From: Candidatus Omnitrophota bacterium
GTDB lineage: Bacteria; Omnitrophota; Omnitrophia; Omnitrophales; Aquincolibacteriaceae
Length of the DNA stretch: 64,000 bases
Direction of reading: 5' to 3'
Assembly (NCBI GenBank): GCA_043732705.1
Contig: JAYTHE010000029.1
Coordinates: 3,251-67,250 of the forward strand
Shown piece after piece: positions 25,963 to 42,774 of the stretch; the stretch's first letter is position 1; each line of letters begins with the position of its first letter. The position numbers and the translations under genes are program-made. A model generated the notes under the pieces. The model worked only from the letters and a program-made list of their open reading frames with translations. It was not told the DNA's origin and searched no databases.

Positions 25963-28900
25963 TTAAGCTGAAATATCGATCAATTCGCCTGCTTTGAGCA
26001 AGGCTTGCACGACAACCATCACCGACCAACCACCGTTCGGACGGCGCTGAAGGCCTTGAATACGCTGGTTGAGATAATTTTGTGCGGCAACAATATCGCC
26101 TAGTGCGGCGGCTTGGCGCAAATCACGTATCATCGCCACCAAAACTTCATAGTCTTCTGCTGAAACCGCATTTAAAAGTTCCAAAACAATTTTGCCGCGA
26201 ATATTTTTTAAGATTGAATTCGAAGTTAAGAGCACAGCTACACCAGGTTTTGCAGCCCATGTCGCAACCTCGGTTTGATTCCCAACAATCACAAGCGCAC
26301 TCATCCAATTCTTCGCTTTGTTCTTCTGTTCAACGGATAACCCTGATTTCAAATTGGTCAATTTATTCCGAATGCGATCGCGCAAGCCGCCCTTCATGTC
26401 TAATAAAATCAAAAGCCCCGCTGTATCTTTCAAAACGGCATAGAGACCCTTGGCATCATTTGCTTCGAGCAATAAATCCACATACGCGGAATCCAGAATA
26501 AGCTGCGTATTATTTTGGACAAATTTTGATTGAGGCGCCGCCAATGTTTTGCTTGGTGCTTGCTGCGCAAGCACTCCAACTATCGGCTGAGGAATTTCAT
26601 CGGCAAAAGCTTTCGCACCTGTCCATGTCATAATCAAAGCAATTGCATCGCTTGTAGCAAGCTCCATCAAAAACTGCCGCGGCACAATACCGCGCATAAT
26701 CCAAACCAATGTTGGTAAAATCGCCACACGCGTCTGCAGAGGCTGTCTTGTAATTTGAGCTTCACCAAAAACCGGCCTTTGCTCTGACCGCCGAATAACC
26801 CGCGGCGCATAAATCAAACGCGCCTGATTCCCCAGTGATGGGCTCGGTGTCAGGTCTTTTGGAAGACTTCGCACTTCGGAGCGAGCTAAATAATAGTAAG
26901 CCACGGTTTCTAACCCTTTATTGCCAATTTGTTTTGCGAAAATTTTCCCTGAACGGCTCAACTCAGCAAAAAGAACTCTTGCTTCCGCAACTTTGCTATC
27001 GTTTTCAATGCCATATCTCCCCCCATCGATAGCTTTGGAAAGCAGCTGCACAGCCTGCTTCGCTTTAACAATGTTGGCGGGAGTTTGGTCTTTTAAGAAA
27101 ATGAGCGTCACAGCTGCTATAAAAACCAACACGCTTCCAAGCAACCCGGTAAGCGAGCTTGCTGAAGCCGAAATATTTGTCATGGCCGTCGCGAGGCTTA
27201 TCAACCATGCCCCCAAAGTCATGGTCACGCCCGCCGCCAAAACCGTAACAATCCATAATTTCAATGATTTTTGTTTTACCGCATCAGATTGCTGCCACGC
27301 CACAGCCTTACCTCCTAGCTGTCTTGAAAGATTGACAAACTGCTGCCAATTATTATCAACCCGCGCTTCGGAGCGAGCCAATCTCATCCAAATATAAGCT
27401 CCAGTCATTATTTCCGGTAAAGAGGCATCCGTAAACTCGTTTTGAAATTTTTGTTTGAGCAATTCCAAAAGTTTTCGTGTGTTTTCTAAATTAGCCTCAG
27501 TTTCGCCGTCATGATAATAAATTTTAAGTTCGATATTTTTTTCTTCTCCTGCCATTTCAACTTCAAGTTTTTTGAAATTTGGATTTCCACGAAAATAATT
27601 CTCAGCCGCTTGCCTTATAGCCTCTCGAAAAAGAAGGTCTTCCACACCACTATAAATGGCGGTATCGCTGTCAGGATTTGAGGCGGTTGACTCAGCGTCA
27701 TTTTTTCCAATTACAAACCACGCTTTTGCTTTGGACTCCACGGTGGACGATGAGCTTGAACCTTCAGGAAAAAATAGTTCCTGAAGCTCCGGAGAAGGCG
27801 CCTTGGGATCTAACAAAATTGTGGGTACCGCAATTTGTCCGAAAGCATGCGCCCCTTGGAGTGACTTTCGGAAATCTGCTAGCGAACCAGGAACTGTTTC
27901 ATCGGCATCGACATCGACCACTTTTTTACGGGCGAGAAGAACCGCTTTCCAATAGTCCGCGCTTTCTGAAAACTCCTCCGGCTGATAAAAAAGAACCCCC
28001 ACAATCTCGACTGCATCCGGAAAAACTGCGCCATCCACATTGGCAAGTATCTGTCTAATCGCCGCAGTTTTTTTCCTTTCAAACGGATTAGTAACAGGCG
28101 CATATCGAGTCAGTTGATTTTTGCCAACATTACCATTGCCCGGCTGGCGACCGGTAGACGACCCACGCACAGTTTGATTCTCGCCTCGCACAAGCCAAGC
28201 AGACGGAATCAGCCGAACAATCAACGTGGCTGCCAAAACACTGAGCAATAAATATAAAAATGGATTTGCATGTATCAAATTCCATAAGACTCCAAAATGA
28301 ATGCAAAAAAATGCGACAGGAATAATGGCTGCCGTGATCAATCCCCTTTTATAAATGACTCGGATTGCGTGGTTCTGCTGCGAAGGAGAAGCTAATTTAA
28401 ATAAATCCGGAAAAATAATTATCAGAAAGTCCCTCAGAAGAAAATAGAATGCCGCGGCAGTCCCAAATGCTATGCCCATATTAGAAAAGTATGAGTGCTG
28501 CGAGCCAACCATGCCGTTTCTTGATAAAATCGCACCCACAGCACTGCTCAAATCCATTGCCAGAATTAAAGTCACCACCCTCATGGTCCATGGCGCATGA
28601 CCTTGTCTGTGTTCGGAACGCTTAGGCGGAATGACGTGTCCGGACGAAGGCTGACCGTTACCAAAATGGGTTGGGAGAGGAGCGTTTTTTACCTGCGGAA
28701 TTGAAAACGGACTACGCATTTTGTTGCCATATCCATATGTCGTAAAAGTCATCGGCCTAGGTCCTGCGTGCTCCATACTACGACGCACCGCTTCTGTGAA
28801 TTGCGCGCAACTACCCAAGATTCCAGCGATTGAAACTGACAGCAACATCCTCACGAGTGAAGAAATTCCCAGCCGTTTATTGAACCGCATTTCGGAGCGC

Positions 28901-31900
28901 AATAGCTTTGGAACGAGCTCGCGCAACACAAACAATCGAAAAAGTGCCGGAGAGTTTTTACCTTCCCCGCGCATCACTTCTAAATCTGCGCTCGCATCAT
29001 CCGGCACAGAATAGCGCTGAACAAATTTTTTGAAAGCCGCACGGTCTTCATCTGAAATCTCGTGAGGGATAATTTTGCGGCCGTCTTTCTTTGATGGATC
29101 TGGTGCATTGACCAAAATAAATTCCAGAATTTTATCTTTTTCTTGAAAGGCGCGTATCCAAAGAACCCGGGGATCAAAAAACGACTTGATCATCTCAGCC
29201 TCAACGCGCGATGCATTTTGCAAACGCGCAACCGCTTGAGAAAAAATCGGGGCATGCGCGCCAAGATTGATAATATTCCACTCACTCCAAAAATGCGCGC
29301 GATACCTGTAAAACAGTTGACCACCCTCAACCACAATAATTTGATGATTTACTCCTGCTTCTACAGTCTGTTTTCCGCGCGATTCAGAGCGGGCCTTCGC
29401 TTCATACAAAGAAAAATAAACTCTGCCGCTATCGCCCGGCTCGGTTTTTTGATCCCAGCTGATTGTGACCTGGGATGCTGCCCGGGTACGCGCGACACGC
29501 AGATTTTGCAAACTAAAATTCACGCTTCTTGCGCCGGATTCGATTTTGACCAGCTCCATAACGTCGGGATTTCCGCGAGCGGGACGAAAATCCAAAAACA
29601 TATCGGTGCCCGATAAAATATTTTCAACCGCTGCGGTGGCCTTTGCACGGGCCGTGGAAGAAGGCAGACTTCTGATTTGGCCTATAAGATGCGCCTTTAA
29701 GTTTGTTCTTACGTCGAGATGAGTAACCAGGTTCAACTTCCATTTTTTCTGCAATTTCTCTCTGGAAACTAAAAGCATCGTTGCGCCGTAACCTCTTACT
29801 TCAGAGCGAACGGGAATCGAGAATTTGATTTTACTGCCCGAAACTTCAACTTTAACAGGCTTGGTTTGGCGTTGAGCAATGCGGTCGGTTGGGCGCTGTC
29901 TTGGCGAGCCTTCCGGTGAAAGAACGTAGACCTCTTCATTCCGCAATTGTTCGTTCACGACCACACCCCAATTACCGGTGGGGGCATAGGTCTGCGTAAG
30001 AGCTTCGCGAAAAGCGCTTAATTCCCCGGTTTGATTTACGATAAAGATCAAGCGGCGGGTTTTCAAAAGGCCCTTCATCAAATTACGAACATACCCCAAA
30101 TCGTCAGGCAAAATTATCCAGGCCTGTAAAGCTTGAATCAACTCAGCCTGTTTCTTCAAAAGCGCAGGGTCGGCCTCATTGACATTTCGCGCACCACCAG
30201 CTAAAAGATCGATAAGGAAAATGCGCTCACCGCGATGTTTATAAGTACCTTGCCCAGCAGCCTCAACATGCTGAAAAAATTCGTCGGTCACTTCACTTAC
30301 GAGCTTATCGTCTAAATTGAATTCTATTTCGCGTGTTTCGGAGCGGGCTTTGATTTTTGAAGTTGCGGCTTCAAGCAAGCGTGCTTTACGCTGAGCAAGG
30401 TCTGCATCCGAAATCCGGGCTGTAGCTCCCCCATTCGCGCCCCACTGCGATTCATAATTCAAATCAATATTCCGGTGTGCGTTTAAAAAGCCGCCGCTGG
30501 GGCCAAAATATTTAACCCCCCTGAATTCAACGGGGCCTCCTTTTCCGGAAAAAACTTCTAATTGAATCAAGCTCTCATCTCCATTTGCGCCACCGTAAAA
30601 TTTCCATAGCTTGTATTTTGTGCCAGGCACATTTTCGACTTTGAATCTCGTTGCATTTTGAACGAGAGCCAGAACTTCTTCGTAGCTAATTGATTCTCGT
30701 GATTCAGAGCGACTTTTTGTCTTCTCGCCACGTTTTTTAAAAGTTGCCATGTTGTGATTACGGCGCGCTGCGTGAAGAAAGCGCCTATTTCTTTCATCCC
30801 GCCTTTCATCATGCGCCTCTTGCTGTTGAATCGCGTGACTCCTCGCCGCTGGATCCCAAGCTACGCGCATCGTAAGTGGATTCGGTTCGCCGTCCGCGCG
30901 CTGACGCGCCTCGGAACGGCGCGTAAACTCAATGGTCCATATAAATCTTCCATTATTTAAACGAGAGCCTTCACTCTTCAATTGATAATCATATTGAGGA
31001 TATTTCCATGTTAAAAGGCGTCCAAAATTTTCCGCTAAATCCTTTCCAAAATTTCCTTCCGGAACAGAAACCGTCATCTTAAAAGAAACAGGGTTAGCAC
31101 CTGAAAAAGAAATTACCGGGTTGTTGTCATGCATCGCCAGCCCGCGTTCTAAATAAATAAACTCTTTGGGTGCACTACCTTGTGTCCACAGAGGTGTGCC
31201 CTGCATTTGCCCAAGCCCTTTTGAAGTGAGCGGCTCACTTTGAATTGCGCTTAAATGTTCCTGAACGGCATTCATCGCTCGCACACCCAAGGTTTGCAGT
31301 TGAGCATCCGTGGCGCCGCTTGTTTCTTCAGCCTTAAAATCCAAACCAAAAGATGTCTTGGCCGTAATCAAAGCTTTGCTGCGGTTTTTTGCAACACTGA
31401 TTTCAAAAACCAGGCCAGGCAAGACTTTGACAACCAAAGTGGGTAGAGAATTTTTTATTTCTTTTGAACTCCATATAATGCGCCCATGGTTCGGAAGAAT
31501 TTTATCCATTTGTGTCAAAAGGCTTCGAAATGCCGGTCTAAAATTTTCTGCAACGTCCGCGACGGCTCCGCTGATCGCGCCATCTGAAAGGCGATGTTCG
31601 GAGCGGGCATCCGGAACTTCAATAATAATTTCAACGTGGTCTCCGGTTAAAGATTCAACACGAGCCGAAAATCCCGGCACAGTAAGCGGCGTCAGGTCGA
31701 GAGATGCACCATATACGGCCGATTGAATATCACTATTTTCACCGTTCAAACCATAGCTTACGGCTAAATGCTTTGTCGGTCCGTCATGATCATGCCCGTC
31801 AACATTATCAAAAATAACCACGCGGCCATTCAAAATTCCCAAACGGAATTCATGGTCAGAGAGAATCGTTGCCATGGGCGATGCTTCATCGCTTAACTGA

Positions 31901-34900
31901 TCCAGGTCGGCAAGCAACCCCGGCTCATTTCTCGTGCCGCGGACTGCATCAAAATTGTCATCGTTTGCATCAACTAAAAACATTTCAATGGGCGCGCCCT
32001 TTTTTAAAGCAATCGGTTTTGTCCGTTTTGCCGTTAATACTATTTCACGAACTTCAGAGCGAACAGCACGCGCGCTTTCGAAAGCAGCCTGAATTGCTTC
32101 TTGTGATTTCACACCGCGAATGGCCTCGCCGCTTAGAAGTAGTTGTATTTTTTGCTCAAGCGTTGCCCAATTAAAAATTTGGAGAAGCTTTAAAGTGTTC
32201 TTAATCCGGCCGACAAGGTTCGCTTTATTTCCTGATTCAATGTGTGCAATAAAAGCCGCCCATTGTGGGCTTATTTTTAGAAGCCCACGCTTTTCTAAAA
32301 TTTCCCGCATCAGCGCAATGCTTTTTTCTCCAACTCGATCGGTTGTCAAATCACCAGCTTTTAATTTTGTCAGCAGTTGCCCCATATCCGTGATTGGCGA
32401 TGCGCCATCCGACAATTGATTCTTAGCGAACCCGGCAAGCCTGCGGTCTATTCGAGCCATTTCAAAAAATAAATCATTCAGCTCATAGGCCAATCCCTCT
32501 TTGCGTCTTTTTTGAAAAACAAAAAATGCTTTAGCCCAATTCAACCCTGTTTTTCGAATGTGCTGTATGGTTTGACTGGAATTCTTCCCTAGCTTTCCGC
32601 GCAATTGACTCACGCTAAGGAATTCTTCACCGCTCAAAGGAAACTGTCCTTTTAATACCGCGATTTCATCTTTTGTCAGCGGTGATTCTGTTGAATTAAA
32701 AAGCTGTTCGCGGAATTCCTGGTTACTAAGAAATGCCGGTCTTCGCGGCGTTTGCCGGAATTCCGAGCGGACGGTACCCGCAACAGAAGGGGCCGATTCG
32801 GTGCGTAAAATAAGGTGCCCAGCTTTGAGGTCAATTAAACCTTGATAAGCGTTGCTGAGAAACAAGTCCTGCCTTGTGCCGTCGCTTCGAATCATCCAGG
32901 GTACTCCGCCATGGATTTCATCATAATTCAAAGGGCGAAGCGGGTTTAATCCACCATCGATCAGTTGAGCTCCGATAACTTGGCGATCTTTAACCCAAAA
33001 CACAATGTCTTGTCTATTCTGGCCGCGAAACGCAGCAAGATTCAGCCCTTCAAACATTGTTCCAAACTTAAAATTACTAACAGTAACAATTTGAATAACT
33101 TTTCCGTCTAAATGACTCGCACGCGTTTGATCCATGATAACTTTTTCTATCTTCGGATCCCAATACCACGAGCGAAATGCAGGCAACCAAATAGGCGAAA
33201 ACATTAACAGAGCAAATATGCTAGCAATGCTTGCGGGAATAAGAACAGCAATAACCCGTATGATTAAACTAAAAGATGTTCGACCCAAAAATCTCAACCT
33301 TTTCGAAAAATAAGAATAGTTAGCATCATTCTTTAATAGGGTCACAATATGGATTACGCTTTCCAAACTCTTTAAGGCTTCCGGCTGATCCTGCGCATCT
33401 GTCTTAAGAAAAAATTTAATCTGCCATTTGAGCACTGTTCCGCCAAGAGTCCACTCATCTACCAATTCATCAAATTTCGCCGGCATCGTACTTAAAAAAT
33501 TTCGCACATCCGCAAGCATTTCCGGTTGTTTCGAAGCATCAAAACCTTTGTTTTTCAGAAGGGACTGAAACCCAATTGCTTCGTTCTCAATACCATCAAG
33601 CACATTTAAAAATTTGGAAGTTCTCTTGCCCATTTGAAGAAAACGTGATTCTGAACGCGCTAAATTGCCAAACCAATTTTTTTCCTCGATTGCGGCGTCT
33701 TTCGCATCGGCGCTGCCATGAAAACCATTCGGGCCATAACCCACCTTACCGGAATAAGGAATGCCCTCTTTTTGTCCAAGCATACCGCGCAGTGTATCTT
33801 TGCCGGCTTTGGCGGGATTCGTATCGCCCAAGCGAATTCTAAAATCAGCGATGGCTTTTTGTTTTGTCCCGGCGGGAGCTAAAAGCGGCGCGATTTCTAA
33901 AACAATAATCGTTTTTTGTTCAGCCCAGGTTTGACGCATTTGGGGATAATGGCCGTTGATAACAACAACATCTTCTTCGCCGCCACCGCGTTTTTTAAGA
34001 TGCATTTTAGCGACATAAGCGCCTTCTCCGATTTTGTTGCGGCGATCAACAGTCCAAACCGGCTGGCCAGCATCGTCTTTTTTAGGAGGCGCAAGACTAT
34101 CCCATGCGCCCGCGAGTTCATCCGCCGTAACATTGTATTTTTCTAAAACTACGTCAGCGGGAAGGATAATAGCCGCGGCACCATAAATATGTTCACTCGT
34201 AGCTTTCAAGTTGGCATCTTGTGAACTAAAGCCTTTTGAAGCATATCCCGCCATTAAACCATAGTGCTGATCCACTTTTTTAGAACGCGCGGCAAATTCA
34301 CCCGACATCGCGACACCGCGCACAATATAAAAACCATCATCGTTTAAAATTTTCAGAGACTTTTCAAAAAATTCCGGGCTTTGCGGGCCGCCAAATTGTT
34401 TGAAAATGAAAACTGCTGCTTCATCCAATTTTAACCGGCTTCGCGGCACAGTCTCCCTGTCCACATAAATCGGAACTGGCCCTCCCTTCACGTCTAGAGC
34501 TGAAAGTTTTGCTAACTCTTCAGCGAGTTTCCGCAATTCGGAACGCACCGGCTTAAACACAAATTGCCAGCCTAGCGGAGCTTGTCCCGGGTGCCTGGAA
34601 TGAGCTGTCTCAACTTCGGTCCCTAAAAATTCCCGGACCAAGGCTTCTTGTTCATCCGAAAAAGTGATTCTTATTTTTGCTAAGTCCGGGTTATAAGAAA
34701 AAGCAACGAGCGGGTTTTGATCTGCGCGTTCATATCCGGGAATATTTCTGCTTCTCAAATGAAAAGCAAACGGCATGCTGGCATTCTCACGATTCCAGGA
34801 CATCCAAACCATTTCACCCTTGGCGTCTTTCATTTCAAGCGCCCAGCCATTGCCATCCGGATAAACGGAAAGCATCGCGTAAGTTTGTCCGAGCGAAAGT

Positions 34901-37900
34901 GTTCTCTGGGCGGATACTGCTCCTGATGTGTATTTCCAAGAATCTAAATTCCCGCGCTGCCCCTGAATCAATTTATATAAATCATCCATGGTCATGCGCA
35001 TTTCGGAGCGAGCGGAATAAAGCAATTTTGGATAATGGTCTTCGATTGTCTGCTTTAACTTTTCCTGAAAGATCTTGTCAGCGGGTTGCGATTCCAAAAT
35101 CAGCCAGCGCTCCTCGGTCTTCGAGTCAGCCGGACTTTCAATCACCACTGTTAAGCCGGCCCGGTAAGCGATAACTGAAAGAATATCAAAAATTTCCTTT
35201 GATCTCCCTGTTAACTCCACGTTGCGGGCCGCATCAATCGAGACTTCCGAAACATTCAAAGGAATTCGAATTTCATTGCCTTTAAAATCAATGACCAGCT
35301 GATTCATTCGCAATGTGGTAATAAAATTTTGAACGCTTGAATCCTGCTGATTAGAAGCGTTATTCCAAGGCCACCCTTGGCCATAGCCGAATCGCATTTC
35401 AGAGCGGGCGGCTGAGTCAAGCAAAACAGCAGGCTGGGGCGCTGGTTGCGTGTTATTTTTATTTTGGGACTGCTCCTCGCTCATCTGCCGCCTGAATTCC
35501 GCTTCCTCTTCTTTAGTAAGCCGCCTTACAGCTCCACTTGTATCCGGCATATTATCCGCCGCGGGGTTTGGATTTCTGAGTGGTTCCAAAAGTAAATATC
35601 CGGCATAAAGGACACCCACCGCCGCAAGACTAATCAACGCGGCCGGCACCTTGCGTATTTCAGACCGGGCAGTCGGTTCAAGAAATAAAAGCTGGGCATG
35701 CAGGCCCAAGTGATGCATATTCGCATCGTGAGCAAAGTGATCCGTAACTGGAATGCCCGCGCGAAAATCGTACACCAAGTCTTGCGCACTAGGAGCTTTG
35801 TCGTAAAAGTGAACTTTTTCTTCGCCCGGAATGGAATAGTCCCCCACCGAATAAAACACATCATCGCGTGCGGCCAATAACGAACTCATATTTTGAACAT
35901 TACGCGCCCACACTTTATTAGCCTGTTGATCCCAAGGTTCGATTCCCAAATAAAAGAAAGGTGTTAGAATGCGGCCGGTTTTAGGATGGCTGCGGGAAAA
36001 CATAACCGTGTCATAATGATCTGTGCGATGCAAACGCAACATTGAACCTTCTCCGAAAAGAAGTTGATTCACAGGATCTTTTAAATAATTTTCAAGCATT
36101 GAAAATTGCGGAAGATTCCAGCTTCTGAATGCTTCCAACGTTTCTGGCGCCAGAAAAACAGCTAAACCCGCCAAGCCAAAAACTTTTTCTTCGCCGTATT
36201 TTTTCGCGGCTTCTTCGCGCGACAATTGACTGATTTCAGCCACCCATGTCGCAAGTTTTTGCGGCAAAGGTTCCCCCTGCTGAATGGGCTTGCGAATTTC
36301 CTTCACCATTCCGACCAAGGGCTCGAGATTGTTCTGTCGATTGAGAATCGCGTTAAACTCGCGCATATATTGCGCGCCCGGATTAAGCGCATTCACAACA
36401 CGGCTTAATTTAACGGCGACTTCCAAATAGGAGCCAAAGTGTGCCGGTTTTTCATGAAATGCGTTGACCTGGTTCAGAAGAACTTCCAGATAAGAACCGG
36501 GCTTATCGTCTTTGGGAATTAAAATGTTACCGGAGCCCGCGACTTTCGGATTAAGAACAATTCCGATTTTCTGAATATTGCCTTCCGTCCAAGCAGGCCC
36601 CATGATGAGCGCGCCATTCACCGCGCCGTTCATTTCAGTAATTTCCGAAGCGCCGGTTTTATAATTAGAATCCGCCACAATAATATGTGAAATGCCTAAA
36701 CCGTCGACTTGTTCTTCCAGGCCGAATCCGGTCCGAACAACTACGCGTCCAAATTTTCTTCCTTGCTCTCTTTCTTCTTTTTCAGCGAGCGTATTGATTT
36801 CAGCCGCCGCTTTCTGCAATTCTTCAAAAACTTTATTCGGTATGGTTTGAACGTTGCCTTCATAAAGTACATTCGCGCCGCTTAAAATCAGTTGGCGAAT
36901 GTTATAAATCGTCCAGGCGCGCTCACGGCCCGATTTCTCATGCACAAACCGTCCTAGGTAAGAAATTACCGGTAAATCAGGATTGAGCTCAGCGTTCCAT
37001 ATCCCTTTATATTTAATATTTAATTCCCGGATACCTTCTTTTTTTGCCGCAATAATCTGCTCACCGGTGGGACGCCAGACATCCACTTCCCCCGGATGAG
37101 GATAAAGCTTCAAAAGCATTTTTCTAAAAAAAGCCGCCGATCGATCCAAGTCATCCCCGTTAGGAACGGAGACCATTCGCGCTTGCGGATCCCTGCGCGA
37201 AACTTCATGCACGTGCGGCGCGGCCACGCCATTTCTTCCGTGAGAAGCGCGCACGCCCTGCGAAGTAGGGTCCATTGAGCCATTGCTGTCGACCGATTCC
37301 ACCGGGCCCCGATTTAAAAAAGTATGCGTGGTAAACCAGACAATTGCTTTTCTTAAAATGTCGGTGGCTTTATCCATTTTTCTTTTTTCGGGAGGCAAAT
37401 AACCGGTCTGTCCGTCATTGCCCCAAATCACCGGCGACTTATAATCGTTTGCGTTTTCACCTTGTTTGGTTTTTTCTAAAATCCGGATCAATTCCAACGA
37501 CGCTTTGGAGAAAAATTCACTAAATTCTTTCCAGGTTGGCAAAGGAAAAGGCGGGTCTTGAATGTCAGGCGAATATTTGTAAAGTGCTGCGGTGTACTTA
37601 CCGCCGTCAAGCAGGTAAACGGGAATGCCGTCTTCGGTTCTCCCTTCTCTGACAATGACTTTCACTTTTGTTCCAAGCACAACCACTTCGAATTCATACA
37701 CCGCTTTTAAATTTTTAATCGGCGTTTCAAGTTTTTCATAATCGATGGGGGTCGTGGATTTGTCCGCGTGAATCTTATGATGATAAAAGCCTTCGATTGT
37801 TACGATTTTTCCACGTTTTGCCAAAAGCTTGTGAATAGCGCGTGTGTGGTATTGCCCGACACGGCCTAAGCCGCCCGCCAGCAGCCATGTCTCGGGCGAA

Positions 37901-40900
37901 ACATAATAAATGCGGCGTCCAATAAGATTCGGCGTGTGGAACTGCATCCATTGATCAATGTAGGCTTCCCATTCCTCCGGAGCTAATAATTCTTCGCCCA
38001 GCATTAAGAAAATTGCGTCCGTCACGCGTAAAGATCCAAATTTTTCAGGGGCAGAGATTAATTGCCGGAGCAATTTCTTCTGATCGTCTTTTTTCATCAT
38101 CGCGACCGCGCGCATGACCGGCCAACGAGATTCAAGCGGATATTTCGGCCAATCATCAGCCGCTTTGTCATAAGCCGCTAAAATTGCAGGCAGGTTCTCT
38201 TTGTTGTTTAAGGCTTCGAGCAATTGTGCTTGAATATAAAATGCCGCGTCCGAACTAAGCGCGGCGGCATCCATATTTTCAAGCAAACCCGTTCGCTGAA
38301 TTTCCGCCCACAAGGCAGTTAATTGATCATTGCTCGCGCCAAGGTTCATATCAATCAAACGCGCGGACATGCGGGGTTTAAGATCAGCTTCCGCGATGGA
38401 GTCACCGTCTTTCTTGGCATCCAGATAAACCCAGACCATGGTATTCATTCTTTGCCAATCCGCCGTGGGAGCATCAAGTCCCATCCAAAGCGATTTGTTC
38501 ATATCCCGTAATTCGGAGCGTTGCGCGGACTCGTTTTGCTTCTCTGCAAGCACGCTTTGAATAAACATCGCCATACCAATCGGGCCAATATTCTTTTGGC
38601 TTAATTTTTGATGCTCTCCTGGCCCCCAGCTCTTTTTCGCAAGATCCTTCTCCGTTAAAATCGTGATTTTTATTTTATCTTGCAGATCGTATTTTCTGAG
38701 CGCATCGAAAATTACTTGTTTAAATACTTCCTTGCGATCTTCACGGACAATTCCACCGCCAAGCACAATCTCATCGGGACTACCTTCGCCCGTCCCTTGC
38801 GTCATAAAATAATGGATAGCCAAATTGCTGGCGTATTTATCAGCAAAGTTACGCAAAACTCTGTTGGCAATTTGGCTTTTTCTGTTTCTAAGCAAAGCGG
38901 ACAGATTATCCGCCAGCGGTTGAACTGGCAGTGCTTCTGCCAAGGGTCTAAATTCGCCTTCCCTCAAATCATTCCAGTGATTCCTGTTATTAGTGGCCTG
39001 AGTAATCGCGGAATGGAGCATTCCAGGAATGCCGGTGAAAGCTTCTGAGTCATAAATCGCGTCGCCCGGTCGGCCAAAATTGAAAATACAATGTCCCACC
39101 TCCGTTGGCGCATTCATCGGAATACCGTTAACTAACTCTGCGTTACCAAAACCCGTACCAAGCCAATCCACGCGAACGTGGCCCTTTAATAATTCAGGTT
39201 TAATTGCAGCAAGGGCCCAAGCCACCCCCGAACCAACACCGTCCATGTCATTGCGAATCAATACTTCTCCGTGATTTAACCCTAGTTTTTCCTTTACCCG
39301 CACTGGTAAAATTAGTCCAAAATGCTGAACTTGCCTCATGCTCCATCGTTTTTCAGTAGGAATCTGCCCTAAAGTTTCCATTTGATTTTCGGTTAAGTTC
39401 TTGGCGCCGGGGGTGTCAAGACCAACGCCGTCAAAATTAATCCCTGCCCCCAATACTGCTTTTCTAATTTCGTCTATGTGGTCTGCGATACGCATAGCAA
39501 ACTGTTCGGGCGATTCCGCTATAAATTCGCCTCCCACAGTTTTTAGAACAGTCGGAAGCGTTTGCAAGTCTTCTGGAATCTCTATCATTTTTCCGTTACT
39601 TATCACCGCAAACTTTGCCGAACCACCGCCTAAATCCATCCCGAGAAAATTTCCTTTTACATCCGCTTGTAAAGCAATGCCCAGATCCAACTTCTTTTTC
39701 TCTTTTTCTTGAGGCGTCAGGTCCGATATTTTTTTAAAAGATATTTTTTCACCACCGCCATTTGCGTAATTCTGAACTCCAAACGCCGTTACCGTGTCCT
39801 GCGATAATTCCGTGCTTTGATTCACTCTTGATAAATCGCCCTGAGTTAGCAAATCGGCGATTCTACTTTCTTTTACCAAATCAGGCTCACCTTCAACTCC
39901 GACCGCAATAAATGAAGTGCCATATCGAATCGAAAGGTTGTAGGCCCACGCGGCTATATAACGATAAGCTGATTCTTGAAACGCGGGATCTTGAAGCAAC
40001 GACCGCGACATCGGAATTTGAAGTTTGACACCGCGCGCGATTTGAATCGTCACATTCATTTTGTCAGCCGCCTCTGCAGGCCGATACTGATTAAGCAATC
40101 CAAACCAAGTTAATGCGTCCGTGCTAACTTTTAAAATCGGCTTGATTTCTTCTAACCGCATTTCGGAGCGCAGAGCTGAGCGGATATTCACCGTTACAGT
40201 ATTGGCGTTTGTTGAAAAATCCCAGGTAATCGCATTGCGTCCCTTTTGCCTTGCGCGGGAAAACTCCCACTTGACTGCTTTCGCAAGAGACCGTCTAGAC
40301 TCTGCCATCACTTTACCCTCTAGCAAAAACAGATTGATTTGAATTCCGATTTCACCATTTACGTAAAAAGCTATTGTTTTTATTTCTGAAGTAGCCGTGG
40401 ATTCAATTTTTCGCAGAATTTCACGCAATAGACGCTCTTCCTGCCGAAAAATCTCTTGCCTTGCAGACACCCTGCCTCTAACGTAGAAGAAAAGCGCCCC
40501 GAGCAATCCGGCGGCCATCCATTTCCAATCATGCCGCAGCCAGGCAAAAATTCCCGTCACAGCCAAAAGAGCCGGATAGAAAAACTTATTCGCTCTTATT
40601 TTTGCTACGGCAGCAGAAAATGTTTTCTTCCATTCCACGCGCATTTCGGAACGCTGAGAACGGCTTTTCGCTTTAACCGAGGACGAACTTCTTTGAACGA
40701 AGCGTCGCACCGGAGATGCTTCTTTACGCGATGAATTAAAAGCGCCGCTGCGCGCAGTAAGTACAAGAGTTTGCAATTCAAAACGATGCATCGCCTCGCC
40801 TCCAACGGGGTCGGCGCCATAAGGAGACTCAAGGTTTCGATTCAGAGTGTTAGGAATAGTATGCGCCATCGTTTGCGCGATACCCGGCATGCGGTACGCG

Positions 40901-42540
40901 GCACTTTCCTGCAGCATACTTTTCAAATAAGCCTGATAACCCTTTTCATCGGGACCGGAAATGGCGGGCGTCACAACAACGTAAGTATAACCTTCCTTTT
41001 CAAGCTGTTTGCGCATCGCGTCCGTATGAAATCCGCCGGTCACTACAACCGCGAACTTTGCGGGATTTTTTTTCAAATAATTCTCTGTATTTTGAATCAT
41101 GAGTGTATCGCGATTTTTCGCGCCTTGATAAAAAGCAACTGCTGTTTGAAAAACGCCATCGATCTCTCTCAGATGCACAAATTGAGATCTTTTCGCGGAA
41201 ACAGTTTTTATTTTTTGCAAACGCCTCGCGAGTGCGGACGGCTGGATTTCTGAAACCACAGGGGTCAGTCCCCGCTGCTTCGCATCAAGGACAGACCCCT
41301 CTGCATTATTTTTTCTGATTTTTAAAAAATCGCCGGGAGTGAGTTGTAACGCGAGAAGTTTTTTGAGCAGGCGATAATCTGAAAAAATGGCGAGCATTTC
41401 TTTTTCGCTTTCATTACGCGCCAATTTATCCATGACAAGTTTTTCAATTTGTTCGATTTCAGATGCAAATGCAGCGGGACGAACTTCGCTTTGCAGGATA
41501 AGCAGACCCATAAAACGCATGACATTAGGATAAGTTTTAAAATTAAAATCATGCGGAAAATAACGCAGCATCTCAGCAAATGTATTTTCTGTTTCAGGTT
41601 CGGGTAGTTGAATACTCTCCCCCGCGCTATTCAAAAGTTTTTCAACTTTCTCATAGAGGCCGGAGACCGGAGACCGGAGACCCGGTAAATACCTTTCGGC
41701 TTGCTTTAAAAAAGCCTTTTTCTCCACTTCATATTTTGAAGCATTCCATTCTTTGGAAATTTTTTGAATTTTAAAAAACCGTACTAACATCGGCCAGGGT
41801 AGCTGCCAAGCTGCGTCCGTTAAATCAACTTCCAGGTATTTTTGCGCGTTTTTCTTTAACTCTTCAGTCCAGGCCTCGTAAGAAACCATTCCCAGCTCAT
41901 GCTGTTCAGCTCTTGTAAGAAAACTGCGTAGCGCGGGATCAAAAATAGCCGCGGCCTTTTCCATTTCCCGGTCAAACGAATCTAAAAATTCCTGCGAACC
42001 TTCACGCGCGCGCAGAACGGCTGCAAACTGACGTTGATTGACCCAATACGCAAATTCGTTTTCAATCCCCTGCGCTAAAGCGGCAGGATGGTCTAATAAA
42101 TACAGTTCGGGGCCCTTAATCAAAGCTTGCATGGCAAGCAAATGCGCGGCCTTTTGTGTACGTTCAGGATTACCAGGGAAAAAATTAATGCGCTGCGGAT
42201 CCAGCTTTCCCGCGGCACCTTCCAGCAATACGGGATACGAACCATATTGCGCGGCAAACCGGTCAAGAATTTTTTGAATTTTGACCTGCGCCTCATAATG
42301 TCCATGCGCGGTTTGAAGATGAACAATGATTCCTTTATAACCCGGATGGAGACTATCAATGTGGCCTAATTTAGTGGGCAATGTAAGCGCAAGGCCTTGG
42401 CTGAATTGGGAGAAAGCTGGAATAGAAATTTCAGCCTGCGGTGCAATCACCCCGGCATAAGAGAAATTAGTGGGAATATAAGCGATCAGCGTCACGATCG
42501 CCGTGACACGCCAAAATTTTCCGAGAGACTTTTGAAGCAT
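25963..42540 (-). CDS. Giant 5,525-aa multi-domain, multi-TM protein of unknown function with about 21 recurrent [AVL]-R-S-E-x-R motifs
   Basis: One uninterrupted 16,578-nt ORF with no stop on the minus strand, which is not achievable by chance at this GC. It has an N-terminal hydrophobic signal anchor and at least five clusters of TM helices. Three domains are recognisable: TraB/GumN/Tiki-like at about 40950..42400, ASKHA ATPase (GMDLGGGSAKF ... IVLGGGI) at about 38740..39690, and a divergent alpha-glucan-phosphorylase-like (GT35-like) domain (IYYVSPETWLLAGGLG ... IPVYLLDGG ... TGASEITEMNGAVNGALIMGPAW) at about 36450..37910. A sigma-70-like promoter candidate lies upstream. Confidence 0.8.
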   Translation of the reverse strand: MLQKSLGKFWRVTAIVTLIAYIPTNFSYAGVIAPQAEISIPAFSQFSQGLALTLPTKLGHIDSLHPGYKGIIVHLQTAHGHYEAQVKIQKILDRFAAQYGSYPVLLEGAAGKLDPQRINFFPGNPERTQKAAHLLAMQALIKGPELYLLDHPAALAQGIENEFAYWVNQRQFAAVLRAREGSQEFLDSFDREMEKAAAIFDPALRSFLTRAEQHELGMVSYEAWTEELKKNAQKYLEVDLTDAAWQLPWPMLVRFFKIQKISKEWNASKYEVEKKAFLKQAERYLPGLRSPVSGLYEKVEKLLNSAGESIQLPEPETENTFAEMLRYFPHDFNFKTYPNVMRFMGLLILQSEVRPAAFASEIEQIEKLVMDKLARNESEKEMLAIFSDYRLLKKLLALQLTPGDFLKIRKNNAEGSVLDAKQRGLTPVVSEIQPSALARRLQKIKTVSAKRSQFVHLREIDGVFQTAVAFYQGAKNRDTLMIQNTENYLKKNPAKFAVVVTGGFHTDAMRKQLEKEGYTYVVVTPAISGPDEKGYQAYLKSMLQESAAYRMPGIAQTMAHTIPNTLNRNLESPYGADPVGGEAMHRFELQTLVLTARSGAFNSSRKEASPVRRFVQRSSSSVKAKSRSQRSEMRVEWKKTFSAAVAKIRANKFFYPALLAVTGIFAWLRHDWKWMAAGLLGALFFYVRGRVSARQEIFRQEERLLREILRKIESTATSEIKTIAFYVNGEIGIQINLFLLEGKVMAESRRSLAKAVKWEFSRARQKGRNAITWDFSTNANTVTVNIRSALRSEMRLEEIKPILKVSTDALTWFGLLNQYRPAEAADKMNVTIQIARGVKLQIPMSRSLLQDPAFQESAYRYIAAWAYNLSIRYGTSFIAVGVEGEPDLVKESRIADLLTQGDLSRVNQSTELSQDTVTAFGVQNYANGGGEKISFKKISDLTPQEKEKKKLDLGIALQADVKGNFLGMDLGGGSAKFAVISNGKMIEIPEDLQTLPTVLKTVGGEFIAESPEQFAMRIADHIDEIRKAVLGAGINFDGVGLDTPGAKNLTENQMETLGQIPTEKRWSMRQVQHFGLILPVRVKEKLGLNHGEVLIRNDMDGVGSGVAWALAAIKPELLKGHVRVDWLGTGFGNAELVNGIPMNAPTEVGHCIFNFGRPGDAIYDSEAFTGIPGMLHSAITQATNNRNHWNDLREGEFRPLAEALPVQPLADNLSALLRNRKSQIANRVLRNFADKYASNLAIHYFMTQGTGEGSPDEIVLGGGIVREDRKEVFKQVIFDALRKYDLQDKIKITILTEKDLAKKSWGPGEHQKLSQKNIGPIGMAMFIQSVLAEKQNESAQRSELRDMNKSLWMGLDAPTADWQRMNTMVWVYLDAKKDGDSIAEADLKPRMSARLIDMNLGASNDQLTALWAEIQRTGLLENMDAAALSSDAAFYIQAQLLEALNNKENLPAILAAYDKAADDWPKYPLESRWPVMRAVAMMKKDDQKKLLRQLISAPEKFGSLRVTDAIFLMLGEELLAPEEWEAYIDQWMQFHTPNLIGRRIYYVSPETWLLAGGLGRVGQYHTRAIHKLLAKRGKIVTIEGFYHHKIHADKSTTPIDYEKLETPIKNLKAVYEFEVVVLGTKVKVIVREGRTEDGIPVYLLDGGKYTAALYKYSPDIQDPPFPLPTWKEFSEFFSKASLELIRILEKTKQGENANDYKSPVIWGNDGQTGYLPPEKRKMDKATDILRKAIVWFTTHTFLNRGPVESVDSNGSMDPTSQGVRASHGRNGVAAPHVHEVSRRDPQARMVSVPNGDDLDRSAAFFRKMLLKLYPHPGEVDVWRPTGEQIIAAKKEGIRELNIKYKGIWNAELNPDLPVISYLGRFVHEKSGRERAWTIYNIRQLILSGANVLYEGNVQTIPNKVFEELQKAAAEINTLAEKEEREQGRKFGRVVVRTGFGLEEQVDGLGISHIIVADSNYKTGASEITEMNGAVNGALIMGPAWTEGNIQKIGIVLNPKVAGSGNILIPKDDKPGSYLEVLLNQVNAFHEKPAHFGSYLEVAVKLSRVVNALNPGAQYMREFNAILNRQNNLEPLVGMVKEIRKPIQQGEPLPQKLATWVAEISQLSREEAAKKYGEEKVFGLAGLAVFLAPETLEAFRSWNLPQFSMLENYLKDPVNQLLFGEGSMLRLHRTDHYDTVMFSRSHPKTGRILTPFFYLGIEPWDQQANKVWARNVQNMSSLLAARDDVFYSVGDYSIPGEEKVHFYDKAPSAQDLVYDFRAGIPVTDHFAHDANMHHLGLHAQLLFLEPTARSEIRKVPAALISLAAVGVLYAGYLLLEPLRNPNPAADNMPDTSGAVRRLTKEEEAEFRRQMSEEQSQNKNNTQPAPQPAVLLDSAARSEMRFGYGQGWPWNNASNQQDSSVQNFITTLRMNQLVIDFKGNEIRIPLNVSEVSIDAARNVELTGRSKEIFDILSVIAYRAGLTVVIESPADSKTEERWLILESQPADKIFQEKLKQTIEDHYPKLLYSARSEMRMTMDDLYKLIQGQRGNLDSWKYTSGAVSAQRTLSLGQTYAMLSVYPDGNGWALEMKDAKGEMVWMSWNRENASMPFAFHLRSRNIPGYERADQNPLVAFSYNPDLAKIRITFSDEQEALVREFLGTEVETAHSRHPGQAPLGWQFVFKPVRSELRKLAEELAKLSALDVKGGPVPIYVDRETVPRSRLKLDEAAVFIFKQFGGPQSPEFFEKSLKILNDDGFYIVRGVAMSGEFAARSKKVDQHYGLMAGYASKGFSSQDANLKATSEHIYGAAAIILPADVVLEKYNVTADELAGAWDSLAPPKKDDAGQPVWTVDRRNKIGEGAYVAKMHLKKRGGGEEDVVVINGHYPQMRQTWAEQKTIIVLEIAPLLAPAGTKQKAIADFRIRLGDTNPAKAGKDTLRGMLGQKEGIPYSGKVGYGPNGFHGSADAKDAAIEEKNWFGNLARSESRFLQMGKRTSKFLNVLDGIENEAIGFQSLLKNKGFDASKQPEMLADVRNFLSTMPAKFDELVDEWTLGGTVLKWQIKFFLKTDAQDQPEALKSLESVIHIVTLLKNDANYSYFSKRLRFLGRTSFSLIIRVIAVLIPASIASIFALLMFSPIWLPAFRSWYWDPKIEKVIMDQTRASHLDGKVIQIVTVSNFKFGTMFEGLNLAAFRGQNRQDIVFWVKDRQVIGAQLIDGGLNPLRPLNYDEIHGGVPWMIRSDGTRQDLFLSNAYQGLIDLKAGHLILRTESAPSVAGTVRSEFRQTPRRPAFLSNQEFREQLFNSTESPLTKDEIAVLKGQFPLSGEEFLSVSQLRGKLGKNSSQTIQHIRKTGLNWAKAFFVFQKRRKEGLAYELNDLFFEMARIDRRLAGFAKNQLSDGASPITDMGQLLTKLKAGDLTTDRVGEKSIALMREILEKRGLLKISPQWAAFIAHIESGNKANLVGRIKNTLKLLQIFNWATLEQKIQLLLSGEAIRGVKSQEAIQAAFESARAVRSEVREIVLTAKRTKPIALKKGAPIEMFLVDANDDNFDAVRGTRNEPGLLADLDQLSDEASPMATILSDHEFRLGILNGRVVIFDNVDGHDHDGPTKHLAVSYGLNGENSDIQSAVYGASLDLTPLTVPGFSARVESLTGDHVEIIIEVPDARSEHRLSDGAISGAVADVAENFRPAFRSLLTQMDKILPNHGRIIWSSKEIKNSLPTLVVKVLPGLVFEISVAKNRSKALITAKTSFGLDFKAEETSGATDAQLQTLGVRAMNAVQEHLSAIQSEPLTSKGLGQMQGTPLWTQGSAPKEFIYLERGLAMHDNNPVISFSGANPVSFKMTVSVPEGNFGKDLAENFGRLLTWKYPQYDYQLKSEGSRLNNGRFIWTIEFTRRSEARQRADGEPNPLTMRVAWDPAARSHAIQQQEAHDERRDERNRRFLHAARRNHNMATFKKRGEKTKSRSESRESISYEEVLALVQNATRFKVENVPGTKYKLWKFYGGANGDESLIQLEVFSGKGGPVEFRGVKYFGPSGGFLNAHRNIDLNYESQWGANGGATARISDADLAQRKARLLEAATSKIKARSETREIEFNLDDKLVSEVTDEFFQHVEAAGQGTYKHRGERIFLIDLLAGGARNVNEADPALLKKQAELIQALQAWIILPDDLGYVRNLMKGLLKTRRLIFIVNQTGELSAFREALTQTYAPTGNWGVVVNEQLRNEEVYVLSPEGSPRQRPTDRIAQRQTKPVKVEVSGSKIKFSIPVRSEVRGYGATMLLVSREKLQKKWKLNLVTHLDVRTNLKAHLIGQIRSLPSSTARAKATAAVENILSGTDMFLDFRPARGNPDVMELVKIESGARSVNFSLQNLRVARTRAASQVTISWDQKTEPGDSGRVYFSLYEAKARSESRGKQTVEAGVNHQIIVVEGGQLFYRYRAHFWSEWNIINLGAHAPIFSQAVARLQNASRVEAEMIKSFFDPRVLWIRAFQEKDKILEFILVNAPDPSKKDGRKIIPHEISDEDRAAFKKFVQRYSVPDDASADLEVMRGEGKNSPALFRLFVLRELVPKLLRSEMRFNKRLGISSLVRMLLSVSIAGILGSCAQFTEAVRRSMEHAGPRPMTFTTYGYGNKMRSPFSIPQVKNAPLPTHFGNGQPSSGHVIPPKRSEHRQGHAPWTMRVVTLILAMDLSSAVGAILSRNGMVGSQHSYFSNMGIAFGTAAAFYFLLRDFLIIIFPDLFKLASPSQQNHAIRVIYKRGLITAAIIPVAFFCIHFGVLWNLIHANPFLYLLLSVLAATLIVRLIPSAWLVRGENQTVRGSSTGRQPGNGNVGKNQLTRYAPVTNPFERKKTAAIRQILANVDGAVFPDAVEIVGVLFYQPEEFSESADYWKAVLLARKKVVDVDADETVPGSLADFRKSLQGAHAFGQIAVPTILLDPKAPSPELQELFFPEGSSSSSTVESKAKAWFVIGKNDAESTASNPDSDTAIYSGVEDLLFREAIRQAAENYFRGNPNFKKLEVEMAGEEKNIELKIYYHDGETEANLENTRKLLELLKQKFQNEFTDASLPEIMTGAYIWMRLARSEARVDNNWQQFVNLSRQLGGKAVAWQQSDAVKQKSLKLWIVTVLAAGVTMTLGAWLISLATAMTNISASASSLTGLLGSVLVFIAAVTLIFLKDQTPANIVKAKQAVQLLSKAIDGGRYGIENDSKVAEARVLFAELSRSGKIFAKQIGNKGLETVAYYYLARSEVRSLPKDLTPSPSLGNQARLIYAPRVIRRSEQRPVFGEAQITRQPLQTRVAILPTLVWIMRGIVPRQFLMELATSDAIALIMTWTGAKAFADEIPQPIVGVLAQQAPSKTLAAPQSKFVQNNTQLILDSAYVDLLLEANDAKGLYAVLKDTAGLLILLDMKGGLRDRIRNKLTNLKSGLSVEQKNKAKNWMSALVIVGNQTEVATWAAKPGVAVLLTSNSILKNIRGKIVLELLNAVSAEDYEVLVAMIRDLRQAAALGDIVAAQNYLNQRIQGLQRRPNGGWSVMVVVQALLKAGELIDISA

Positions 42541-42590: not shown

Positions 42591-42620
42591 AATATACTCG
42601 TTGAAAGGACTTAAGACAAG
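42591..42620 (-). promoter_or_regulatory. Candidate sigma-70-type promoter for the giant gene (minus strand: -35 TTGTCT, 17 nt, -10 TATATT, about 40 nt upstream of the ATG)
   Basis: Read from the reverse complement of 42591..42620 in an AT-rich 5' region. Confidence 0.3.
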
Positions 42621-42774
42621 AGTGAAAATGAAAAAAAATTTAGAATTAAAACTTAAATCTAGCGGATAAAAAAACTAAGCTTCTATTTGAAAAATAAATC
42701 TCTATACATAAGAATAGAGAGAGATCACTATCAATTTATAGCGCAGAAAAGCACTCCAAATAGAATTGTTCTTA

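Follow-up and report, generated by a model that had tools for sequence, protein, structure and literature searches.

A recurrent pentapeptide delimits shuffled protein cassettes in a 5,525-residue open reading frame of an Omnitrophota bacterium and suggests a polyprotein

Giant genes of the phylum Omnitrophota have been described in several reports, and their products are called 'Archaeovorins' or 'multi-enzyme metabolic cluster' proteins (bioRxiv 10.1101/2023.11.21.568195; bioRxiv 10.64898/2026.06.07.730766; PMC10066038). The size thresholds used were an open reading frame (ORF) of >20 kb, ≥10,000 amino acids (aa) and >30,000 aa (PMC10066038; bioRxiv 10.64898/2026.06.07.730766; bioRxiv 10.1101/2023.11.21.568195). 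Here we analyze an ORF of 16,578 nucleotides (nt) and 5,525 aa in a 64,000-nt stretch of contig JAYTHE010000029.1 from a Candidatus Omnitrophota bacterium. This whole stretch is called the window and all coordinates refer to it; the ORF is called the giant (P0001 in our numbering, in which P denotes relative proteins and L relative loci). The giant lies below all of the published size thresholds and is a smaller member of the same kind of gene. It shares with the published examples the phylum, the long ORF, several transmembrane helices and GT5/sugar-metabolism domains amid mostly unannotated sequence. For the published proteins, too, an N-terminal region 'lacking identifiable domains' was noted near the signal peptide and cleavage was already suspected. 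The papers propose, however, C39 or S8 peptidase domains as processors, whereas a Pfam scan found no peptidase domain (C39, S8, cysteine protease domain or other) anywhere in the giant. Whether such chains work as one molecule or are cut up has been an open question since the Omnitrophota giants were found, and missing cleavage points hindered the structure-based analysis in the 2023 preprint (bioRxiv 10.1101/2023.11.21.568195). The separator motif reported below makes this question testable. Neither in the Omnitrophota giant-gene papers nor in full-text literature searches did we find a description of such a motif or of the TIKI-like N-terminal head.

The pentapeptide RSExR occurs 21 times in the giant, whereas shuffled versions of the protein contain it 0.09 times on average and twice at most. 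All 21 RSE tripeptides of the giant fall within RSExR, and 21 of the 25 RSExR occurrences in the six-frame translation of the window lie inside the giant ORF. In the ~13,000 aa encoded by the remaining ORFs of the window, R[SAT]ExR is found once. The codons of the motif differ synonymously between sites and the second arginine uses all six codons; therefore selection acts on the peptide. The sites divide the giant into 22 segments of 31 to 951 aa (Table 1), which have no detectable similarity among one another. With no paralogy among the 22 segments, internal tandem duplication is ruled out as the source of the length of the gene.

The boundaries of homology between the giant and its relatives coincide with the motif. 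Homology blocks start within 5 aa of a motif in 31% and end there in 17% of the cases, compared with 3% for random positions. The closest relative, P0002, comes from an independent metagenome-assembled genome (MAG), assembly GCA_043718225.1 (contig prefix JAYSWD, as in the contigs L007 and L012 of Omnitrophota isolate GFS_12873), where the genes are arranged as hisG-ispE-clpX-permeases-glmU-prs-giant. P0002 is the positional orthologue at the prs-glmU locus and its N-terminal module, the head, is 60% identical to that of the giant. Five cassettes of the two proteins match one-to-one in permuted order, segments 11, 2, 6, 3 and 14 of the giant corresponding to segments 7, 8, 9, 10 and 12 of P0002, and motif-to-motif lengths of matched cassettes are 161/153, 152/153 and 122/123 aa (giant/P0002). 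Where the giant shares homology blocks with P0002 or P0003, both block ends fall at motifs in either protein, the homology to P0002 reaching as far as the motif on each side, and the GT5 cassette is bracketed by motifs in the giant as well as in P0003. None of the 71 motifs in the five proteins with mapped Pfam units lies within a Pfam domain unit (P ~2e-5). Multi-domain proteins are found intact in a single cassette, namely UGDH with its N-terminal, central and C-terminal parts, hexokinase 1 and 2, PGM I-III, a PAS-kinase-receiver protein and GT5 with GT1, and here the motifs are located 4-14 aa from the edges. Because the motifs spare Pfam units and bracket whole multi-domain enzymes, they separate proteins and not domains. 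Judged from these sequence comparisons, the motif very probably marks independent cassettes.

About 50 nt past the stop codon of P0002 an ORF without ATG (L080, 24091-25755) runs to the end of the contig and contains RSEMR. At the P0002 locus the giant may be interrupted by a stop codon or frameshift, or may be followed by a head-less cassette gene.

In the first family search residues 1-5000 of the giant were used as query against 5.8 billion proteins. This search gave 72 proteins, all of them 2.7-7.8 thousand aa (kaa) long and most of the labelled ones from Omnitrophota. They share with the query about 11-13% of its length, which is the N-terminal ~550 residues and is always placed at their own N-terminus. 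The domains that follow in these relatives include UGDH, hexokinase, PGI, PGM, FBPase, glutamate dehydrogenase, adenylate kinase, isocitrate lyase and sensor kinases. A profile of the head retrieved 9,394 cluster representatives from 1.84 billion proteins, 5,955 of them at E ≤ 1e-30, and the head was N-terminal in all of the 150 matches listed. When one genome per species was scanned, at least 480 head loci were found, with several per genome. The head nearly always opens an ORF that is longer than 1,900 aa or runs past the fetched DNA, and all named relatives among 79 loci belong to the Omnitrophota. The family has no Pfam or NCBIfam model. The first-pass annotation of the window had named the Omnitrophota as a home of such genes, which agrees with the affiliation of the named relatives and with the syntenic closest relative in an Omnitrophota MAG. 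It had also called such genes rare; within the Omnitrophota they are common, since the head defines more than 9,000 protein clusters and is present in several copies per genome.

Over the whole family the motif reads R-[S/A/T/P]-E-x-R. In most of the 72 giants no gapped word is more enriched than R[SAT]ExR, of which up to 33 copies are present, and 127 independent representatives contain 750 copies of R-[S/A/T/P]-E-x-R compared with 30 expected. The motif density is 2.1 per kaa in head-bearing ORFs versus at most 0.46 in other long ORFs of the same loci; the non-head remainder stems mostly from giants further upstream that have their N-terminus beyond the locus, and the sole head-less motif-bearing ORFs that we found lose their 5' end at the edge of the locus. 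At the fourth position it is the physicochemical class of the residue (V/A/L/M/I), and not the codon, that is restricted. Which residue is preferred there is specific for the genome and common to divergent giants of one genome: P0001 and P0040 both favour RSEMR with heads that are just 28% identical. At the level of sequence this fits a co-evolving recognition system, be it the head or a separate enzyme.

P0040 is a second head-bearing giant of 7,377 aa, probably from the same genome, with 20 motifs (11 of them RSEMR) and with GT1/GT4 and NUDIX domains. Giants also occur in tandem: in the upstream 10 kb of L019, L077, L071, L076, L012, L038 and L063 a second motif-bearing giant lies immediately before the head-bearing one in the same orientation and extends beyond the locus. 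L031 uses RPExR. The distant head-bearing giants P0030, P0031, P0042, P0054, P0060, L052 and L053 are without R[SATP]ExR and have other over-represented words (A/GSLG, GARxA, GFGA), which could be alternative separators or mere repeats.

We propose that the single translation product would be an array of 22 independent protein cassettes. Cassette 1 would be the head, which is Sec-exported, ~550 aa long and probably folded as a TIKI/erythromycin-esterase-like hydrolase. The 21 cargo cassettes would comprise a GT5-like enzyme, a divergent protein similar to nucleoside-diphosphate kinase (NDK), small membrane proteins, a lipoprotein precursor, proteins without relatives and a clade-specific tail. 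RSExR at each junction would be the recognition site of an endopeptidase cutting the chain during or soon after synthesis, and the released cassettes would reach their own compartments, those with a signal anchor or lipoprotein signal being inserted or exported only once freed. The reading in which a site-specific endopeptidase, the head being the foremost candidate, processes the giant as a polyprotein at RSExR seems to us evenly poised between right and wrong; the narrower claim that the head is the processing enzyme is tentative and rather doubtful. The head would be the most economical protease candidate because it is universal and linked to the motif, has a probable hydrolase fold and there is the precedent of a site-specific TIKI endopeptidase. 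A separate cytoplasmic enzyme encoded elsewhere would be nearly as likely, since the head carries an export signal and much of the cargo is of cytoplasmic type. Cutting at the motif, the enzyme responsible and the place and time of cutting are what we infer from the features described in the following. The 'one membrane-anchored multi-domain giant protein' of the first-pass annotation is probably not the functional form, given that 21 RSExR sites set apart independent cassettes, each a whole protein that can be shuffled.

The arrangement of targeting signals argues for new N-termini at the motif. A hydrophobic anchor-like stretch is present within 25 aa after the motif at 5.5% of 972 sites, versus 2.6% for random positions and 1.2% just upstream of the motif. 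Two textbook lipoprotein signals are located directly at a motif, one at aa 4548 of the giant (RSE-MRFNKRLGISSLVRMLLSVSIAGILGS-C) and one in P0013. Only a cut at site 17 would place the candidate lipoprotein signal of cassette 18 at an N-terminus, and we know of no use for a lipobox deep within a chain of 5,500 aa. Signal anchors and a lipoprotein signal directly after the sites thus make sense only with new N-termini at these positions. The hairpin of cassette 2 is preceded by an Arg/Lys-rich stretch and fits a stand-alone membrane protein with N-in/C-in orientation; its charges clash with a chain that continues from an exported head. A continuous topology would moreover put the NDK-like cassette, and the sugar-phosphate enzymes of the relatives, outside the cell. 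Enzymes predicted to be extracellular were a puzzle to West-Roberts et al. too (bioRxiv 10.1101/2023.11.21.568195).

The N-terminus of every aligned head consists of a positive n-region and a hydrophobic core, followed by an AxA-like site. In an AlphaFold2 (AF2) model based on 25 sequences, residues 50-545 of the head mostly have a predicted local distance difference test (pLDDT) score >90 and are followed by a disordered tail up to the first motif, and a helical insert of ~330 aa splits the core. The first motif stands at a conserved distance past the head, with a median of 128 aa after GGFH in the family. Invariant residues are H79, E107, E160, R477 and T501-G-G-F-H505 (TGGFH505). The spacing of 28 between H79 and E107 is also that of the catalytic His/Glu pairs of RRSP (H3902/E3930) and Bcr135 (H85/E113), the catalytic 2His/2Glu set of RRSP being E3900, H3902, E3930 and H4030 (PMC6254334). 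The fourth candidate catalytic residue of the head is ambiguous and could be position 76, mostly Gln with Glu in few heads, or the invariant E160. In the erythromycin-esterase motif Glu stands three residues before the first His.

Weak Pfam matches among the heads are to ChaN/Tiki, DUF5694 and TraB; PF04187 matches 5 of the 25 heads with a best E of 0.0025, and the head of the giant itself is unmatched. The head had no match in NCBIfam, no match in the PDB by sequence profile and no significant match there by Foldseek, and in Pfam and NCBIfam no TIKI/Ere/ChaN/TraB family profile was matched above the curated threshold. For the head a TIKI/erythromycin-esterase-like fold is probable and a hydrolase activity (peptidase or esterase) plausible. 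With the TIKI/TraB/PrgY/erythromycin-esterase/ChaN proteins (PF04187, PF01963 and relatives) the head has in common the invariant His, the Glu at +28 and a C-terminal GxxH (GGFH). A signal peptide precedes an extracytoplasmic domain in Tiki and PrgY, and the head seems to be built likewise. It differs by the ~330-aa helical insert, by usually having Gln and not Glu at -3, by the missing above-threshold profile and by its fusion to kilobases of cargo. The TIKI superfamily includes proteases (Tiki, RRSP), esterases and inactive members.

Several observations weigh against the proposed processing and against the head as its enzyme. We have not found split orthologues. By its classical Sec signal peptide the head should act outside the cytoplasm, yet enzymes of cytoplasmic type make up many of the cassettes, and in most relatives no stop-transfer helix follows the head; that a head in the periplasm would cut sites in the cytoplasm is topologically awkward. 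Many cassettes end in a strand-like stretch that abuts the motif and not in a long flexible linker. The superfamily to which the head seems to belong also comprises esterases and non-enzymes, and at -3 from the first His most heads have Gln and few have Glu. Finally, the codons of the first Arg and of the Ser are more constrained than selection on the peptide alone predicts.

The topological points would be met if a dedicated cytoplasmic protease encoded elsewhere cut at RSExR and the head were merely the first cargo, serving as a hydrolase that is exported or as a means of recruiting the translating ribosome to the membrane. A single specificity acting in trans easily explains that giants of one genome with heads of ~28% identity prefer the same x residue, and the Sec signal peptide in front of many cytoplasm-type cassettes as well as the lack of a helix after the head in most relatives speak for it. 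No such protease adjoins the giant, however, ClpX being the sole protease-related gene in the annotated parts of the window, and no candidate enzyme has been identified. Furthermore, the motif is present solely in head-bearing ORFs or 5'-truncated giants, which links it to the head. We consider a protease in trans possible but on balance unlikely. Still less probable appears an uncut scaffold of the beads-on-a-string type, with RSExR as hinge, docking or phosphorylation site between the modules. Such a scaffold would be in line with the published view of single giant membrane-associated proteins and with the giant-ORF peptides detected in V. archaeovorus (PMC10066038), and the strand-like cassette ends abutting the motif would suit a continuous chain. 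In an uncut chain, however, the internal lipoprotein signal and the signal anchors exactly after the motif would be functionless, and the charge distribution of the cassette-2 hairpin conflicts with a continuous topology, which taken naively would also place NDK-like and sugar-phosphate enzymes outside the cell. A defined assembly line is hard to reconcile with cassettes that are freely permuted from one orthologue to the other.

The codon bias raises the question whether the motif also acts as DNA. At 404 sites from 79 loci the first Arg is encoded by CGY in 80% and by AGR in 2.5% of the cases versus a background of 23% for AGR, and none of the 21 sites of the giant has AGR at this position. 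The Ser is almost always TCN, with AGY at 6.7% versus 32% background; the second Arg is without such a bias. This hints at an extra nucleotide-level role of the motif beside its peptide role. The bias of the Ser codon is explicable by descent because a single base change turns TCN into the codons of the Ala, Thr and Pro variants, whereas the bias at the first Arg, as far as the codons tell, cannot be explained in this way. Possibly the motif has a nucleotide-level role, for example as a micro-homology core for cassette exchange, coexisting with the peptide role. That the motif is mainly such a DNA element, an integron-like core (~CGY-TCN-GAA) for in-frame recombination whose peptide is a tolerated translation, we regard as highly improbable. 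Shuffling of the cassettes exactly at the motif and the first nine nucleotides, more constrained at these 404 sites than the peptide requires, would be expected then. But the wobble positions vary freely, the second Arg is encoded by CGN and AGR alike with the amino acid invariant, the fourth residue is limited by physicochemical class and not by codon, and sites are conserved between cassettes of ~50% identity. A DNA-level role can coexist with proteolysis and does not replace it. Other mechanisms are ruled out: an obligatory internal start codon at x because possible starts make up just 8 of the 21 x codons here and ~43% family-wide, and 2A-like ribosome skipping or intein-like self-cleavage because there is no conservation upstream of the motif.

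Returning to cleavage at the motif, the proposal might be extended to the phylum. Omnitrophota would then use polyproteins routinely, with thousands of genes in which a Sec-targeted TIKI-like head is followed by up to dozens of unrelated, shuffled cassettes ranging from metabolic enzymes and sensor kinases to membrane proteins and lipoproteins, a lineage-tuned endopeptidase acting at R-[S/A/T/P]-E-x-R, and the same nucleotide core serving maybe as exchange junction. We put this forward as a conjecture that is somewhat more apt to fail than to hold; if true, a virus-like expression strategy and an integron-like cassette system would exist within ordinary bacterial chromosomes.

Two cargo cassettes resemble known enzymes, both above the Pfam cut-offs, so that the enzyme-like modules amid unannotatable stretches noticed in the first pass are confirmed. 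The match of cassette 4 to GT5 starch/glycogen synthase (Glyco_transf_5) scores 30.1 bits (cut-off 22.7), and the cassette is 52% identical to a P0003 cassette that is flanked by motifs on both sides. At the place of the lysine of KxGGL, the usual GT5 motif, cassette 4 reads LAGGLG, and its activity is for this reason uncertain. The NDK match of cassette 8 scores 31.5 bits (cut-off 27) over profile positions 45-131 and the cassette holds the HGS catalytic histidine (FHGSAD). It reaches 25.7 versus a cut-off of 155 with the NCBIfam NDK equivalog and is therefore called NDK-like and not an orthodox Ndk. In cassette 3 the sequence DLGGGSAKF was noticed by eye alone; Pfam, NCBIfam and PDB searches gave nothing and we make no claim of a ROK/sugar kinase. 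The signal sequence and the hydrophobic clusters of the first-pass annotation were found again by hydropathy at the places where it had put them; they are aa 12-27 (the N-terminal h-region), aa 654-689, aa 2300-2318, aa 3096-3114, aa 4557-4575 with four further helices at aa 4655-4778, and aa 5097-5148.

In the six closest giants (P0003-P0007, P0073) the tail cassette invariably closes with ...(H/R/G)EL(I/V)x(V/T/I)SA and follows an RSEQR or RSEAR site. This conserved end may be a C-terminal signal. The AF2 model of the tail has a pLDDT of 51. In the collection of 5.8 billion proteins the tail and the dark cassettes match the fragment P0073 and P0002 alone, and no stand-alone homologues were found. 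For ~3,000 aa of cassettes (aa 2292-5250, window 26791-35667) P0002 is the sole detectable relative in this collection. This part is extremely lineage-specific sequence under an intact reading frame.

The ORF itself is real. Its translation has a single stop, at the end, and the chance of 5,525 codons without a stop is ~1e-140 as computed from the base composition; the five alternative frames of the same region contain 213-364 stops apiece. A codon-usage model trained on 25 flanking genes favours frame 0 in 108 of 108 sliding windows, the codon frequencies of the giant and the flanking genes correlate with r=0.93, and the GC content is even across the window, the giant included. Because frame 0 is preferred throughout and the codon usage agrees with that of the flanking genes, we conclude that the giant is coding over its full length, is native to the genome and contains no hidden frameshift. 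The uninterrupted 16.6-kb frame of the first-pass annotation therefore stands. An assembly chimera or pseudo-ORF is made improbable by the uniform coding signal, the native codon usage and the syntenic orthologue in an independent MAG. As a whole the interpretation given there is partly supported.

The chromosomal setting described in the first pass also proved correct. The giant is flanked by pth and L25/Ctc on one side and by prs and glmU on the other. The window begins with a PLP-dependent enzyme, homoserine dehydrogenase, an ABC transporter, lpxB, type III glutamine synthetase and a sigma-54 activator, continues with lpxI, an lpxA-like acyltransferase, lpxC-fabZ, skp, bamA, dnaB, L9, S6, pth and L25, and after the giant contains prs, glmU, two ABC permeases, clpX, tRNA-Gln, an ispE-like gene, hisG and tsaD. 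A mobile island is ruled out by these housekeeping neighbours and the even composition. Rfam and tRNA scans of the window found tRNA-Gln alone. The spacer preceding the ATG of the giant is AT-rich and 357 nt long. It contains an inverted repeat with 26-nt arms (42774-42799 and 42873-42898, 88% complementary, 73 nt apart), the outer arm of which touches the annotated TTG start of prs. Elsewhere in the window LpxC and a FabA/FabZ-like dehydratase domain are joined in one ORF (16015-17295, minus strand), and a 234-aa plus-strand ORF without Pfam match (22796-23500) lies amid a long minus-strand run, overlapping a 171-aa minus-strand ORF. Between clpX and the ispE-like gene a small ORF with a GIY-YIG nuclease domain (48579-48905, minus strand) adjoins tRNA-Gln(TTG) (48922-48992, minus strand) and may be a mobile-element remnant.

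Table 1. Features of the giant ORF and its upstream region (window coordinates; aa, position in the giant)
Feature	Position	Strand	Evidence
Giant ORF, 5,525 aa + stop, ATG start	25963..42540	-	ORF list, translation, codon model, stop-frequency estimate
Sigma-70-like promoter match TTGTCT-17-TATATT, ~50 nt upstream of ATG	42591..42619	-	consensus match alone
Sec-type signal peptide, aa 1-29: positive n-region, h-region VTAIVTLIAYI, SYA|G	42454..42540	-	sequence, hydropathy, AF2 helix 7-27
Head core, aa 50-545, probable TIKI/erythromycin-esterase/ChaN-like alpha/beta fold with large helical insert	40906..42393	-	AF2, conservation, weak Pfam
Disordered Arg/Lys-rich linker, aa 546-629, head to first RSExR	40654..40905	-	pLDDT <50
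Site 1, RSEMR (aa 630)	40639..40653	-	motif scan
Cassette 2 body, ~156 aa after site 1, small protein with two-helix hydrophobic hairpin aa 654-689	40171..40638	-	hydropathy; homologous to P0002 cassette 8
Site 2, RSEMR (aa 791)	40156..40170	-	motif scan; cassette boundary common to P0002
Cassette 3 body, ~545 aa after site 2, dark; 53% identical to P0002 cassette 10	38521..40155	-	Pfam, P0002 comparison
Site 3, RSELR (aa 1341)	38506..38520	-	motif scan; GT5 cassette start, common to P0003
Cassette 4 body, ~946 aa after site 3, GT5 starch/glycogen-synthase-like; Pfam match aa 1543-1747 (37300-37914)	35668..38505	-	Pfam, alignment
Site 4, RSEIR (aa 2292), signal-anchor-like helix directly after	35653..35667	-	motif scan, hydropathy, alignment
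Site 5, RSEMR (aa 2379)	35392..35406	-	motif scan, P0002 cassette comparison
Site 6, RSEMR (aa 2511)	34996..35010	-	motif scan
Site 7, RSELR (aa 2666)	34531..34545	-	motif scan
Cassette 8 body, ~291 aa after site 7, divergent NDK-like; Pfam match aa 2862-2958 (33667-33957)	33658..34530	-	Pfam, NCBIfam
Site 8, RSESR (aa 2962), 4 aa past end of NDK match	33643..33657	-	motif scan, Pfam
Hydrophobic helix, cassette 9 (aa 3084-3114)	33199..33291	-	hydropathy
Site 9, RSEFR (aa 3258)	32755..32769	-	motif scan
Site 10, RSEVR (aa 3494)	32047..32061	-	motif scan, P0002 cassette comparison
Site 11, RSEHR (aa 3646)	31591..31605	-	motif scan, homology-block alignment
Site 12, RSEAR (aa 3875)	30904..30918	-	motif scan
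Site 13, RSESR (aa 3944)	30697..30711	-	motif scan, P0002 cassette comparison
Site 14, RSETR (aa 4066)	30331..30345	-	motif scan, homology-block alignment
Site 15, RSEVR (aa 4245)	29794..29808	-	motif scan
Site 16, RSESR (aa 4384)	29377..29391	-	motif scan
Site 17, RSEMR (aa 4548)	28885..28899	-	motif scan
Lipoprotein-type signal MRFNKRLGISSLVRMLLSVSIAGILGS-C directly after site 17	28807..28890	-	sequence; same arrangement in P0013
Site 18, RSEHR (aa 4641)	28606..28620	-	motif scan
Four-helix membrane block, cassette 19 (aa 4655-4786)	28183..28578	-	hydropathy
Site 19, RSEAR (aa 5056)	27361..27375	-	motif scan
Two-helix membrane block, cassette 20 (aa 5093-5155)	27076..27264	-	hydropathy
Site 20, RSEVR (aa 5220)	26869..26883	-	motif scan
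Site 21, RSEQR (aa 5251); RSEQR/RSEAR junction precedes tail in P0003-P0007 too	26776..26790	-	motif scan, tail alignment
Tail cassette body, ~270 aa after site 21, C-terminal in six closest giants, conserved end ELxxxSA	25966..26775	-	alignment

The motif has practical consequences for work on the Omnitrophota giants. It predicts exact termini for proteomics and gives a rule for splitting these proteins into units small enough for structure prediction, and reading it as a separator explains the puzzling 'extracellular glycolytic enzymes' of a continuous topology. Through the head, more than 9,000 clusters that the domain databases have so far passed over become accessible as one family. Should cleavage be true, a large-scale polyprotein strategy would be used in cellular organisms, and a five-residue site with a matching protease would be of possible use as a tool.

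By analogy, the nearest mechanistic counterparts seem to be MARTX toxins and viral polyproteins. Like the giant, a MARTX toxin is a giant polypeptide with conserved ends and variable, unrelated effector cassettes that are exchanged by recombination, and the MARTX cassettes are released by proteolysis at inter-cassette sites. The MARTX processing sites are Leu-based and are not known to have a fixed pentapeptide. RTX/glycine-rich repeats and the inositol-phosphate-activated cysteine protease domain of MARTX were not detected in the giant by Pfam, and the TIKI domain there (RRSP) is a cargo that cuts host Ras and not the processing enzyme (PMC6254334). The cargo of the giant resembles metabolic and membrane proteins and not toxins, and its signal is of the Sec type and not one for type I secretion. 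Viral polyproteins combine a protease within the chain (picornavirus 3C, flavivirus NS3, alphavirus nsP2) with a short linear motif and co-evolution of both in each lineage. With these the giant shares the single ORF for many unrelated proteins, membrane proteins included, and the short motif in between, its cleavage being inferred only. It differs from them in that the giant is a chromosomal gene in a housekeeping neighbourhood, and in that its candidate protease would have another fold and carries an export signal.

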